Positions 55,603 to 60,980 of a stretch of DNA of 64,000 nt are shown here, piece by piece. The first letter of the stretch is position 1. Every line of letters starts with the position of its first letter. The DNA comes from Myxococcales bacterium (GTDB lineage: Bacteria; Myxococcota_A; Polyangia; Polyangiales; DASUME01): NCBI GenBank assembly GCA_047601445.1, contig JASGJH010000001.1, forward strand, positions 9,024,001-9,088,000, written 5' to 3'. A program made the position numbers and the translations under genes. Under the pieces are notes generated by a model. It was not told where the DNA came from. It saw nothing but the letters and a program-made list of their open reading frames with translations, and did no database searches.

Positions 55603-56466
55603 TTACTTAGGCTGACACGGAAGGTTCGCGTTCGGCACCCCGTAACCGCCGCAGGTGATGACGTTGCCGGCGCAGACCTGCTGCGACACGCGCAACGGAC
55701 CTACGAAACCCACGGCATCTCCCCAGCAGTATTCGAAGCCACAGTTGGGATCCCCAGGGCTGCACTTCAACATGCACTGGGTCCCGGTCTCTTCGCATCG
55801 GGTCTTCTTACAGCTGTCGGAGCCGCGGCAGTCGACGATGCAGTCACCGGCCCCCTTGCAGGTGGCGTTGCAAGTGCCCGTGTCGACGCAGTTGATCTCG
55901 CACACGTTCGTCAGGGACTTGTTGCACAGCGGGTTACACACGTCGGTGCCGCTGCAGTTGATGTCGCAGGCCGTCGTGGAATTGCAGAGCGGGGTACAAA
56001 GCTCGATGTCGGGACACTGGAGATCGCAGACTGAAGTGCCCTCGCAGTTGGGCATGGGATCTACCGGCGGCCCGGCTTCGTGGCCCGCGTCGTGTGCGCC
56101 CGCGTCCCCGGCGTCGGGAAGGTGCGGACCCGCGTCGGTACCAGCATCGTGGGCGGCGTCCGGCGTGTCGGCATCCCCTGCGTCGCGGTTCCCGCTGTCG
56201 CCCGCGTTGGCATCCATCTGCACGTCGAGCGCGGCGTCCATGGAGGCGTCGAGATCGATCGCAGCGTCCATGTCTGCGTCCAGGCCGGCGTCCTGCGGCG
56301 TGGTGTTTGTGTCGTCGCCGGCATCCTCCGATGCCAGCGAGGTATCCGGAACCTCGACGCCGGGCAGCCTTCCAGCATCCAGCCCGACGCCGTCGTAGCC
56401 CACCAGGAAGCACCCGCTCGACGTGAGCGCGATGCAGCTCGTGAGCACGCCGGCGAGGCCGCGCAT
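55603..56466 (-). CDS. Lipoprotein with Asp/Ala/Gly-rich linker and 24-Cys repeat domain
   Basis: Lipobox TSSGC; many DA(G/A/S) units; C-x5-C-x3 periodicity; ATG overlaps kinase stop (TAATG). Confidence 0.85.
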   Translation of the reverse strand: MRGLAGVLTSCIALTSSGCFLVGYDGVGLDAGRLPGVEVPDTSLASEDAGDDTNTTPQDAGLDADMDAAIDLDASMDAALDVQMDANAGDSGNRDAGDADTPDAAHDAGTDAGPHLPDAGDAGAHDAGHEAGPPVDPMPNCEGTSVCDLQCPDIELCTPLCNSTTACDINCSGTDVCNPLCNKSLTNVCEINCVDTGTCNATCKGAGDCIVDCRGSDSCKKTRCEETGTQCMLKCSPGDPNCGFEYCWGDAVGFVGPLRVSQQVCAGNVITCGGYGVPNANLPCQPK

Positions 56467-58040
56467 TAACCCCCCTTGCGAGCAGTCAGCGGTACCTCGA
56501 AGGCGATGGGTTGGGCTTGCGGAGGGAACGACATCGCGCGCACGGCAGCTTCGATGCAGGAACCCATGGGCGTGTGCGAGAGCTCGGCGGGCGAGACTCC
56601 GGCCTTCTCGACTCGACCATCGCTCGACACCGCGAATTTCACGGCGAGCTTGGGCACCACCTCGGCCTCGGCCGCATGTGCATTCAGACAGGCCACGACG
56701 GGCGCCCGCTGCTTGCGGAAGCTCTCGGCGAGGATCTCTGCGGTCCCGCGCGCGCCGGGCACGCCGGGTTTGCGAGGGGCGGCGCTTCCATTCTTGGCGC
56801 TGCTGATGATTTGCACGGGACTCGGGCTGAGCGGCGTGGTCACGGGCGTCGCGCCGACCGCGGCCGTGGAAGCGGGCGCGCTGGCGGGTTCGGACCTCAC
56901 CACGATGAAGCGCGGGGCGGGATCGGCGCTCGAGCGCCCGAACCAGATGGCTCCGAGACCGATGGCTGCCACGGCCACGCCGGTGCCCACGGCAGGCAAG
57001 AGCCAACGCCGCGCGGGAGGCGTGCGACGGTTGGGCACGTCACCACGGTGGGTGAGCTCGGTGTCGGCGATGGAGCGCCTCCGTGGCGGCGCCTCCGGGT
57101 GGGTCTCGACTTGCTGGCTCTCGCTGCGCCACGAACTCGGGCGCAGACGCGCGTTCAAGCGCGCCACCGCGGCGCTGCCCAGCATCTCCTGTGAGGACGC
57201 GAGCACCGCCTTCTGCATGTCACGCACGCTCTGGAAGCGATCTTCGGGACGCTTGCTCATGGCGCGAGCCACGACCTCGGACAGCGCCACGCCCACGTCC
57301 GGCAAGCGCTCTGCGAGCGGCTTGGCCTCGGTGGTCATGATCATCAGCATCAGGTCGCCAGGGTTCTCCGAGTAGAACGGCATCTCGCCGGCCAGCAGCT
57401 CGTAGAGCACCACGCCGACGCTGTAGATGTCCGAGCGCTGGTCGATCTGGCGCACACCACGCGCCTGCTCCGGGGACATATAGGCCGGTGTCCCCACCAC
57501 GTGACCGTGCTTGGTGGTGACCTGAGCGGTGCCCGTGGAGTCGAGGAACTTGGAGATGCCGAAGTCGAGGATCTTGGCGGAGACCTGCCCCCGATCGCGT
57601 ACCAAGAAGATGTTCTCGGGCTTGAGATCGCGGTGCACGATGCCGGCGTCGTGAGCCGCGGCGAGACCGTCCAGCACCTGGGTCACGATGCCCAGTAGCC
57701 AATCGAACGGCATGGCATCGCCGCGGCCGAGCACGTCCGCCAAGCTCTCGCCCTCGAGTAGCTCCATCACCATGTAGGGGACGGTCGAGCCGTGCGTGCC
57801 GAAGTCGAGGATGCGCACCACGTTGCCGTGATCGATGGCGGCCGAGATGCGCGCCTCACGCAGGAAGCCCTGCATGATCTCTTCGCGGCGTCGTGACTCG
57901 ATCGCGTCCACCAACTTGATCGCCACTGGACGCGCCAGGACGGTATCAGCGCCGCGGAACACTTGACCCATACCGCCGGTGCCGATGAGTTCATCGAGCC
58001 GGTAGCGCCCACCGATCAGATCGCCTGCTGCAAAAGTCAC
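56466..58040 (-). CDS. Membrane Hanks-type Ser/Thr kinase with C-terminal AgmX/TonB-C-like periplasmic domain
   Basis: [55 protein letters not shown]; tail [33 protein letters not shown]. Confidence 0.92.
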
Positions 58041-59493: not shown

Positions 59494-60980
59494 TTGCGCG
59501 TTCTCCGCAAATCCACGACGAGGATGGTAACTCCGAGCCGCTCCACTTGCGCACTTCGCTCCTGGGTCTCGTGCCCTTCGGCGCTGATCCGGAGTCGATA
59601 GTCACCCGGCGGCACATCGATCAGGAAGGTTCCGTCGTCGGCGGTCTGGAGCACCTGGCCAGTGGTCAAAATCTCGACCTGAGCCTTGAGCGGGCCACCG
59701 CGCAAGCTGCGCACCTTGCCCTTGATTTCGCCTTCGGGGAGGCTGCGCTCCACCGGGACTGGAAGTTCCAGGTGGGCCTGCTCCAGCACCACGCGCTGGG
59801 AGGCGGGTTTGCAGCCCTGGGCCGTGACCTCGATGTCGAGCGCTTCGCCGCGCACCACGCGGAACCGGGCGCGTCCGCCGGCGTCGGTCTCGGCGCTCAA
59901 GGTCTCTTCGCCCATGGTCACGGTGACGGCCGCGCCGGCCATCGGGGCGTCCGCGTCGGTCACCAGGACCACCAGCTCGCCCTTGGCGGCGACCTTGGGC
60001 TGCTCCTCGGTCGCGCGGTCGAGGGGCTGTTCCGTGGGCTCCGGCGCCGGCTTCTTGCCGAGCAGGATGCCGAGCGTGAACGCCGCCCAAAAGCGCGGTT
60101 CGATGCGGATCAAGTCGTTGAACTGGGGGCGGCTGCTCAGGCCGAACCCGATTTCCGCGCCCGGCACCCAGCGCTCGCCCACCACGGTCTGCAGGGCCCC
60201 GCGGAGGCGCATGGGCGACTGCATGGGAGTCGGCGCGCCGGCGCCCACGTTCACATCCCAGCTCCACTCGCCGACGACGGTGAAGCGCCGAAGCTGAGCG
60301 GTGAGCATGGCGCCCGCCAACACCGCGTTGTAGCGGGAGACGGAGGCGCCGAGCTGGTCGGCTTGGCTCAGCGTGTCGGGGTTCTTCAGGGCGTGCGCGC
60401 TGCGGTCGAAGCGGTAGCCGAATACGCCGCTGAGCTCACCGCCCTCCCAGGCGGCCCACGAAGCCAACGCCGACAACTCCGAGGAGACGCCGGAGAATCC
60501 CAACTTGGTGGCGTTTGCGCCGGGGAAGCGGAAGCGCGTCTGCCCCGCCAGGGAGAACTTGGAGCCGACGGCGAAGGCGTGTCGCGTGGTGAGCTCGGTG
60601 CTACCTGCGAAACCCGAGTCGTTGCCCAGGCTCTTGCTGCGGTGGATGTCGTAGCGACCGTCCAGCTTCAGGGCCAGCTGGAGCCAGTTGAGCCGTGCAA
60701 AGGCACCCGCGAACTCGGAAAAGATGCGCTCGTGGTGATCGTCCGTGCCGAGCACGGCTTCGGTATGGGCATAGCCGAGCGAGAAAGCTCCGCGAAACGC
60801 GCGCAGGGTGTCGGATTTTGGCGTGAGCCGGGCCGAGCCGACGAAGCGGCCTCCGTCGAGACCTTCGGGACCGAGCGGTGCGGCCTGCGCGTGCAGCGAG
60901 CCCGCGCCCAGCAGCACAAATCCAAACACCCAGCACACAGCGACCGCCCAAAGGGCGCGGCCGGGGAGCACTTCCTTCAT
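59490..60980 (-). CDS. Outer-membrane beta-barrel protein with two carboxypeptidase-regulatory-like Ig domains
   Basis: Signal peptide; amphipathic aromatic strands (LGYAHTE, FGYRFDRS, GEWSWDV, FWAAFTLG); Pro linker; TDAGGRARF and TADDGTFLIDVPPGDYRLRISAEGH. Confidence 0.72.
   Translation of the reverse strand: MKEVLPGRALWAVAVCWVFGFVLLGAGSLHAQAAPLGPEGLDGGRFVGSARLTPKSDTLRAFRGAFSLGYAHTEAVLGTDDHHERIFSEFAGAFARLNWLQLALKLDGRYDIHRSKSLGNDSGFAGSTELTTRHAFAVGSKFSLAGQTRFRFPGANATKLGFSGVSSELSALASWAAWEGGELSGVFGYRFDRSAHALKNPDTLSQADQLGASVSRYNAVLAGAMLTAQLRRFTVVGEWSWDVNVGAGAPTPMQSPMRLRGALQTVVGERWVPGAEIGFGLSSRPQFNDLIRIEPRFWAAFTLGILLGKKPAPEPTEQPLDRATEEQPKVAAKGELVVLVTDADAPMAGAAVTVTMGEETLSAETDAGGRARFRVVRGEALDIEVTAQGCKPASQRVVLEQAHLELPVPVERSLPEGEIKGKVRSLRGGPLKAQVEILTTGQVLQTADDGTFLIDVPPGDYRLRISAEGHETQERSAQVERLGVTILVVDLRRTRK

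Follow-up and report, generated by a model that had tools for sequence, protein, structure and literature searches.

The window analysed here is a stretch of 64,000 nucleotides (contig JASGJH010000001.1, positions 9,024,001 to 9,088,000) from the 9.5-Mb single-contig genome of a Myxococcales bacterium, with named homologues from Polyangiales and related myxobacteria. On its minus strand lies a cassette of three genes, coding for a predicted outer-membrane β-barrel (gene 1), a FecR-like exported protein (gene 2) and a Ser/Thr kinase (gene 3). The cassette is real and conserved, and apparently undescribed; the conserved unit consists of these three genes and not of four, and the lipoprotein gene that follows them here (gene 4) is optional. 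We propose, at a probability of about one half, that the three products make up a single receptor kinase across the envelope, in which sensing would be performed by separate lipoproteins that carry a short N-terminal tag and dock on the barrel.

The genes lie at 59490-60980 (gene 1; 496 residues counted from the ATG, to which a GTG at 60986 would add two codons), 58066-59493 (gene 2; 475 residues), 56466-58040 (gene 3; 524 residues) and 55603-56466 (gene 4; 287 residues). Genes 1 and 2 share a GTGA overlap (59490-59493), a 25-bp gap (58041-58065) separates genes 2 and 3, and a TAATG overlap (56464-56468) joins genes 3 and 4. These four co-oriented reading frames and their three junctions are exactly those given by a first-pass annotation of the sequence. 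The compartments and folds which it assigned to the products are supported overall, lipidation, disulfide bonds and surface exposure being predicted properties. The G+C content of the region is ordinary for the window.

Conservation of the three-gene cassette

Counting only loci at which all parts passed length filters, and leaving the window aside, we found 49 distinct triads. These occur in five orders: barrel-FecR-kinase (29), kinase-barrel-FecR (14), divergent kinase (3), convergent kinase (2) and inverted barrel (1). The coupling of the three genes that the first-pass annotation had expected is therefore borne out, as they stay together through inversions and reorderings. The conserved four-gene order is not, since the triad itself is reordered and a tagged lipoprotein gene adjoins only 20 of the 49 loci (counted with at least 1.5 kb of flank; locus L022 is a known miss). 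The triad was also present at 12 of 12 further loci fetched around adjoining barrel and FecR-like matches, the kinase having been scored in fetched loci and not genome-wide.

The present genome holds four barrel-FecR-kinase sets, that is the cassette of the window and three paralogous ones at about 27-35% identity, together with two further barrels. Among 41 related genomes, the FecR-like gene is found in 28, and strong barrel-domain matches occur in the same 28. Across 221 genomes of the class, both the barrel and the FecR-like gene were matched in 54 genomes each; 53 have both and 55 have either, and in the two genomes with only one of them the match lies at a contig edge. The distribution is thus patchy, covering about a quarter of class genomes. 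Outside the class Polyangia, both halves of the FecR-like protein were matched once (G215) among 251 genomes of the phylum. Mirror-distance correlations among the members reached moderate values (Spearman 0.27-0.64); kinship confounds them, and they were not used as evidence. Altogether, we consider it very probable that the three genes act as one functional unit.

Some features of single loci may be added. The barrel gene of the cassette at L022:3965-5390 (3475964-3477389 of this genome) is split over two overlapping frames by a frameshift or an assembly indel, and similar splits occur in L032 and L038. Genomes of just 2.7-3.7 Mb (L028, L029, L030, L033, L037, L039, L040) retain one complete triad, with 3-10 tag matches where these were counted.

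Predicted architecture of the core proteins

Gene 1 codes for a signal peptide, an N-terminal segment, a barrel (residues ~37-309) and two transthyretin-like (TTR) domains. The AlphaFold model, based on a 49-row alignment, has a mean predicted local distance difference test score (pLDDT) of 89.9 and shows 12 long strands within residues 62-307, followed by two β-sandwiches of the CarboxypepD_reg/TTR type (Pfam PF13620). In VIA comparisons the barrel matched best the polypeptide exporter FapF (5o65; Z 20.6, root-mean-square deviation (rmsd) 3.1, 233 aligned), then KdgM (4pr7; Z 20.3), the COG4313 channel (4rl8; Z 20.1, rmsd 3.1, 237 aligned) and NanC (Z 19.4), with autotransporter barrels coming next. 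The soluble domains matched carboxypeptidase TTR domains (Z 14.1 to 1qmu). VIA was preferred, as Foldseek runs on whole multidomain models returned low-TM immunoglobulin (Ig), pilin and usher matches that were set aside. No OmpA domain was matched in the Pfam scan. Thus, the prediction of an outer-membrane barrel with two Ig-like domains and no OmpA domain stands, and the possibility that the N-terminal region of 59490-60980 is not a barrel is answered by the 12-stranded model and its matches to solved outer-membrane barrels. The 12-stranded fold with an N-terminal segment is that of the COG4313/FapF/SphA type, FapF and COG4313 being tied with KdgM. At the sequence level, the five PF13557 matches in this genome include none of its six barrels.

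Conservation was mapped on 59 of 72 barrel rows, kept once near-copies had been removed, with a threshold of at least 80%. The barrel was oriented by taking odd strands as outward-running, which gives outer loops of 7, 3, 13, 26, 11 and 16 residues and periplasmic turns of 5, 4, 2, 2 and 5. On this placement 18 conserved polar positions fall in outer loops and outer strand thirds, two in mid-strand and a single one in inner thirds, the periplasmic turns having none. Within the periplasmic arm, the distal domain (TTR2) has 22 conserved positions and TTR1 has two. The split between outer mouth and TTR2 therefore suggests that the barrel protein has two conserved faces, one outside and one periplasmic.

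More than 100 clusters of the barrel family are among the matches listed in a cluster-representative search, which was partly filled by TTR-repeat giants. A sister family carries the barrel and two TTR domains plus a further C-terminal domain, which in the member of this genome (8626803-8629007) is peptidoglycan-binding and of OmpA type; other members, e.g. at locus L199, lie outside the class Polyangia, and HHalign of the gene 1 family against L199 gave 99.7%. At L025 and L194 a solo barrel is followed by a pectinacetylesterase-like lipoprotein and a FadL-like gene. In this genome, a TonB_C-fused TonB-dependent receptor and ExbBD-like genes precede the solo barrel.

Gene 2 starts with a signal peptide and a lipobox (LVAC, Cys16), followed by a FecR juxtamembrane fold (~23-177), a linker and three Ig/fibronectin type III (FN3)-like domains. 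Its Pfam FecR match is weak (E 0.011, below cut-off), and its paralogues exceed the PF04773 cut-off. In the model (pLDDT 90.3), residues 56-177 matched the juxtamembrane subdomain of PupR (6ovm, PupR 111-231) with Z 15.2 and rmsd 1.9 over 115 aligned residues. The FecR-like fold named by the first-pass annotation is supported by this match, and a lipid anchor is predicted from the lipobox. Both model and sequence are without a cytoplasmic anti-sigma domain and without an STN subdomain. Because only the signal peptide and lipobox precede the FecR fold, the gene 2 product cannot hold a sigma factor.

Among 103 FecR-like N-termini classified by script, 74 have a lipobox, 23 are hydrophobic without a scored lipobox (many of these carry a Cys that the scoring rule missed) and 6 are unclear. 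In two paralogues of this genome, at L022 and L023, the anchor is a plain membrane one, which suggests that the family is anchored on the inner-membrane side. At the column taken as equivalent, the Gly-Thr self-cleavage motif of FecR proteins lacks conservation (Thr in 14 of 80). The best sequence match of the family profile in the PDB was the magnetotaxis protein MtxA (4z29, E 0.027), aligned over the FecR part and, weakly, one Ig part of gene 2.

Gene 3 encodes a Hanks-type Ser/Thr kinase of the HRDLKPEN type, with one predicted membrane helix (~347-368) as its single hydrophobic segment, a Pro/Ala-rich linker and a two-cysteine AgmX/TonB-C-like tail (~435-523). The Pkinase match is strong (E 1.7e-48), and the G-loop, the VAIK Lys, the HRDxxxxN loop and DFG are all intact. 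The tail matched the AgmX/PglI C-terminal model NF033768 below its cut-off (E 1.2e-7, 31.7 bits against 40). The GltJ and GltG models matched the same stretch, and a tail profile of 58 rows had its best, though weak, PDB matches in TonB C-terminal domains (E 0.015-0.55). The assignment as an inner-membrane kinase with all catalytic motifs and a TonB-C-like tail is thus upheld, with the tail at sub-cut-off scores. All 68 distinct tailed kinases have a catalytic loop (one with HQD), a hydrophobic segment, an outer linker of 37-120 residues and two tail cysteines.

Tail and catalytic domain have different relationships. The gene 3 tail matches only the three paralogous cassette kinases of this genome at E<=1.2e-7, while the gene 3 catalytic domain ranks these same paralogues 99th, 115th and 131st among 148 kinase domains. 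A quick tree (LG+G4) of 62 rows (24 cassette and 38 other kinases, a subset of 188) requires six changes for the cassette kinases, and the approximately unbiased (AU) test rejected a single clade (p-AU 8e-27). In the midpoint-rooted FecR-like tree, the kinase type of the window is nested among the other type. The simplest reading of these sequences is that the tail was retained and the catalytic domain likely exchanged; loss of the tail by some descendants may have contributed to the pattern. The output of the cassette is therefore likely modular, a kinase-domain replacement that the first-pass annotation had missed. A second, convergent kinase lies ~1-1.5 kb downstream of the cassette in the close relatives L043, L044, L045, L048, L060 and L062, and none does so in the window.

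A short tag on optional and dispersed lipoproteins

Gene 4 encodes a signal peptide, a lipobox-like SSGC with the putative lipid Cys19, a tag (C-F-L-V-G-Y-D, 56392-56412, minus strand) directly after the lipobox, an acidic stalk and a Cys-rich repeat passenger; the mature chain has 25 Cys. These features agree with the earlier description of a stalked Cys-rich lipoprotein, lipidation and disulfides being predicted. The passenger has no Pfam family and no Atlas match at or above 0.9. At eight loci orthologous to the window, defined by a CADD-like gene downstream, the tagged lipoprotein is present at four, three have no room for the gene, and at the remaining one there is an unassigned gap of 668 bases. 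Where the kinase was relocated, the lipoprotein gene lies at the cassette edge or between the FecR-like gene and the kinase; the tagged gene accompanies the cassette.

We collected 54 lipoproteins by the pattern C-x-x-hydrophobic-G-[FY]-[DE] after the lipobox, which is followed by a low-complexity stalk. The passengers of 20 scanned proteins were five C-type lectins, two mannanase galactose-binding domains, two polysaccharide-lyase-like domains (below cut-off), one CBM9, one β-helix (below cut-off) and nine without a family, most of these Cys-rich. Judged by these sequences, the Cys-rich domain is one of many replaceable passengers and the common feature is the tag. The expectation of a variable Cys-rich gene beside a conserved core thus held for the core, and gene 4 is optional and its Cys-rich domain is replaced elsewhere. 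Since the domain is replaceable and the named passengers are mostly glycan-binding or propellers, contact recognition of the TraA kind is not their general theme. The shared tag, the dispersed tagged family and the three paralogous cassettes are absent from the first-pass annotation.

To follow the tag across genomes, a strict DNA pattern for the commoner Arg-containing form was used. It occurs at least three times in 35 of the 55 genomes with a barrel or FecR-like match and in 0 of the 166 others (mean 4.4 against 0.42 matches). The contrast is kept inside mixed families; in f75 the positive genomes have 0, 0, 1, 6, 4, 11, 6 and 0 matches and the negative ones 0-1. Up to 19 dispersed matches accompany one triad. 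Five positive genomes hold 57 strict matches, of which 30 were fetched and 27 of these lie behind a signal peptide. Among 25 tagged proteins scanned, 14 had a family: RCC1, FG-GAP, BNR, Kelch, other propellers, β-helix and LamG.

In the present genome, two pooled scans gave eight tagged genes, four of them beside barrel loci; 3 of 7 lie within 6 kb of a barrel against a background of 1.1%. This enrichment is partly circular because the tag was defined from cassette neighbours, and only one locus is independent of that definition. There, a barrel paralogue (9414196-9415698) lies behind an extracytoplasmic function (ECF) sigma factor and a FecR-tetratricopeptide repeat (TPR) anti-sigma factor, without a kinase, and a tagged lipoprotein gene stands just upstream. 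The tag is therefore tied to the barrel in one instance, and this instance also shows the barrel in a second signalling context.

The full order at this locus (L024:2140-10410; 9410139-9418410) is tagged lipoprotein, ECF sigma, FecR-TPR anti-sigma, barrel and an M60 peptidase lipoprotein, with a BNR-repeat lipoprotein on the opposite strand. Six more FecR-TPR-like genes of this genome (2198144, 4078406, 5745984, 8429125, 8476016 and 8875927) have an ECF sigma near each, and at least three of them precede an unrelated exported protein with a barrel-like end. At L024 the barrel seems to take the place of the different outer-membrane protein that other ECF/FecR-TPR loci have.

Proposed mechanism and alternative explanations

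In the receptor-kinase reading, the N-terminal tag of a surface lipoprotein would bind the conserved outer mouth of the barrel, and the variable passenger would be held outward on its acidic or Gly-rich stalk. Ligand binding, or pull on the passenger, might then change the periplasmic arm of the barrel, whose distal and conserved TTR domain would take the place of the FecA signalling domain. The FecR-like protein and the TonB-C-like tail of the kinase could assemble on this arm, leading to clustering or activation of the kinase, which would phosphorylate lineage-specific targets encoded outside the cassette. We infer such a relay from surface contact to phosphorylation, as the first-pass annotation did. 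That signalling passes through the kinase is probable, and docking of the tag on the barrel is slightly favoured. Beyond this, we put forward tentatively that the ectodomain is split and interchangeable. The five-residue tag would then serve one barrel family as a code for docking or surface sorting, with which one core samples a genome-wide library of up to ~20 lectin, propeller or Cys-rich sensors. Input (the passenger) and output (the catalytic domain or, at one locus, an ECF sigma factor) may both have been swapped in evolution.

For each step there are published precedents (cited papers, here and below, in the portions available). In BamG of Bacteroidota, the conserved N-terminus of the surface lipoprotein BamH is wedged in a small barrel (PMC12578637); GltABH barrels retain CglB at the surface and do not export it (PMC9946355); the TonB-like domain of GltG is predicted to take up a partner strand (PMC11761067); and exported FecR proteins beside kinases are known (PMC5192318).

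Several observations weigh against the receptor-kinase reading. Concerning the cassette, barrels occur alone at L025, L157 and L194-L197, one member is missing at L034, L092, L141, L143, L155 and L156, no adjoining tagged gene was found at 29 of 49 triads, and no conserved substrate gene was found near the cassettes. Regarding the tag, the window's own copy is without the Arg of the strict pattern, the loose pattern is too common to discriminate (197 of 221 genomes), the strict one is absent from 5 of 55 positive genomes, and 59 of 166 negative genomes have one or two uninspected matches. The genomes are related by kinship and the counts therefore overstate independence. In the case of the barrel, its predicted orientation rests on strand parity and loop lengths. 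Structurally it matches channels and a peptide exporter best, and what binds at the conserved mouth could therefore be a solute or a chain under export.

The alternative that survives best, though we regard it as unlikely, takes the barrel as a dedicated exporter of tagged lipoproteins, the tag as a signal for secretion, and the other two triad members as monitors or regulators of export rather than readers of ligands. The top structural match to FapF, followed by autotransporter barrels, agrees with this, and a single triad with up to 19 dispersed tag matches and very diverse passengers would be one exporter with many substrates. However, conservation lies at the predicted outer mouth and not at the periplasmic entrance, a 12-stranded pore would be narrow for disulfide-rich or propeller passengers, and the Glt barrels retain CglB without exporting it.

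We find it still harder to favour a small-solute channel or sensor, with a triad that reports when a small molecule passes or binds, and tagged lipoproteins that are co-inherited or co-regulated without contact. KdgM, NanC and the COG4313 channel are indeed among the close folds, the first Atlas feature match is a Phenol_MetA_deg cluster (0.96, with this family on 40% of its members), and solo barrels stand beside TonB-system, esterase and FadL-like genes. Such a channel would, however, leave unexplained why a five-residue tag is conserved and the passenger is not, and why a tagged gene moves with the cassette or adjoins the ECF-linked barrel paralogue.

There is little to recommend the triad as a mechanical tether of the TonB, TolA or GltG kind that would span the envelope and report stress, traction or the spacing of the membranes to the kinase, without any specific ligand from outside. 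With its membrane helix, 37-120-residue linker and TonB-C-like tail, the kinase is laid out like TonB, the sister family of the barrel ends in a peptidoglycan-binding domain, and genomes of 2.7-3.7 Mb retain one triad. Against this, the patchy distribution, up to four paralogues per genome and the conserved outer mouth speak for input diversity over housekeeping, and no motor genes were seen beside the triads listed.

A TraAB-like device for cell contact or kin recognition, with the Cys-rich protein as polymorphic receptor, is very improbable: gene 4 does diverge faster than the core in two congeners (51% and 44% against 63-81%) and a weak relationship links the gene 1 barrel to a TraB-like one (HHalign 53%, E 1.3e-4, single-sequence template), but gene 1 has no OmpA or TSP3, gene 4 has no MYXO-CTERM or separate variable domain and is missing at 3 of 8 orthologous loci, and TraAB-like pairs lie elsewhere in the genome.

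Comparison with known systems

The receptor-kinase reading invites comparison with cell-surface signalling of the FecA-FecR-FecI and PupB-PupR-PupI type, which likewise joins an outer-membrane barrel with a periplasmic arm to a protein of FecR juxtamembrane fold (PMC7186176). That fold is shared here, by the match to PupR. The other four of the five defining features are not. FecA is a 22-stranded, plugged TonB-dependent transducer, whereas gene 1 is 12-stranded, and no TonB-receptor or plug family was among the matches listed for 49 members save NTE-like SusC matches to TTR domains. FecA carries an STN signalling domain, in contrast to the two TTR domains of gene 1. FecR has a cytoplasmic anti-sigma domain before its membrane helix, whereas here the FecR fold begins at about residue 23, after the lipobox. 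Finally, FecI is a co-encoded ECF sigma factor, and a search with an ECF profile built from this genome found none in the window. In PupR, the STN subdomain following the juxtamembrane stretch (111-231) is also needed for receptor binding (PMC7186176). In the present protein three Ig/FN3 domains stand in place of STN and the output is a Ser/Thr kinase. The scanned neighbours of the four genes are housekeeping genes unrelated to the cassette, in line with the earlier remark that neither an ECF sigma factor nor a TonB-dependent receptor adjoins. Elsewhere, ECF matches occur in 6 of 137 scanned loci, at no fixed position.

ECF267 of Sorangium and Chondromyces is also a system of Polyangia, with a FecR-like protein, no FecA-like transporter and kinases nearby (PMC7826278). 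As described there, it consists of a sigma factor with a FecR-TPR anti-sigma at +1 and kinases at unconserved positions, whereas the cassette has no sigma factor and a fixed kinase with a dedicated tail. An ECF267-type pair is absent from the window; the pair at L024 is of unassigned ECF group.

The Glt proteins (GltG/GltJ, GltABH, CglB) share with the cassette a bitopic inner-membrane protein that carries a long linker and a TonB-C-like tail, the latter seen here in the sub-cut-off NF033768 match, and barrels that retain a surface lipoprotein (PMC9946355, PMC11761067, PMC3169522). In the cassette the tail is on a kinase, not on FHA or ZnR-GYF domains as in those accounts, and the partner families differ. 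No Glt family was matched for genes 1, 2 and 4, and no TPR scaffolds or Agl motor were seen at the locus.

TraA-TraB likewise pairs a barrel with a lipid-anchored, Cys-rich surface protein (PMC12045341), lipidation being predicted here. In that description TraB combines a barrel with TSP3 and OmpA, neither of which is in gene 1, and none of 25 OmpA matches of the genome lies in the window. TraA has a variable domain, a Cys-rich stalk and a C-terminal MYXO-CTERM (PMC12045341), while gene 4 has its lipobox at the N-terminus and lacks a membrane segment at the C-terminus, with a weak stalk match to NF045523 (E 0.003, far below cut-off). The TraB-like barrel weakly related to gene 1 belongs to this genome, M. 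xanthus TraB not being the template. Unlike in TraAB, the cargo is N-terminally anchored, optional, replaceable and coupled to a kinase. Two TraAB-like pairs of this genome (7679612-7682502 and 6155055-6158860) consist of a Cys-containing protein with a MYXO-CTERM-like end, then a barrel-repeat-OmpA protein.

A Burkholderia operon of a LysM-FecR protein (COG4254) and a CHASE2 histidine kinase also sets an exported FecR-domain protein beside a sensor kinase without a sigma factor (PMC5192318); it differs by its histidine kinase with CHASE2 and its LysM anchor, and the available text of that paper describes no barrel or tagged cargo. BamG-BamH resembles the proposed docking mode in that a small barrel holds the conserved N-terminus of a surface lipoprotein; BamG is, however, a 14-stranded FadL homologue in the BAM complex, with no signalling role in the account given (PMC12578637). 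Overall, the cassette resembles cell-surface signalling and is not a member of FecA-FecR-FecI, ECF267, Glt or TraAB. In the open-access literature, with subscription journals outside the search, no description of the triad or the tag was found.

Other features of the locus

A co-oriented gene for a CADD/PqqC-like iron-redox protein (54778-55527) begins 75 bases after gene 4, and it is kept downstream of the cassette at eight related loci whether the lipoprotein is present or not. Further away, an α-2-macroglobulin gene (32699-38396) is in two overlapping reading frames with the MG10 domain in the second, likely owing to a frameshift or assembly indel, and is followed by a PBP1C-type transglycosylase-transpeptidase (38393-40267). 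A promoter and terminator scan of the locus gave nothing usable.

Implications

Myxobacteria have more than 100 Ser/Thr kinases per genome, and for most of them the signal is unknown; the present genome has 148 kinase domains. The cassette could be a concrete route from outside the outer membrane to such a kinase. With the tag, it becomes possible to test how lipoproteins of myxobacteria are displayed or held at the surface, a question left open by the CglB study in the part available (PMC9946355), and it could be used for surface display. If the receptor-kinase reading is true, the reach of FecR-type signalling would extend to phosphorylation, with neither a sigma factor nor a TonB-dependent receptor involved.

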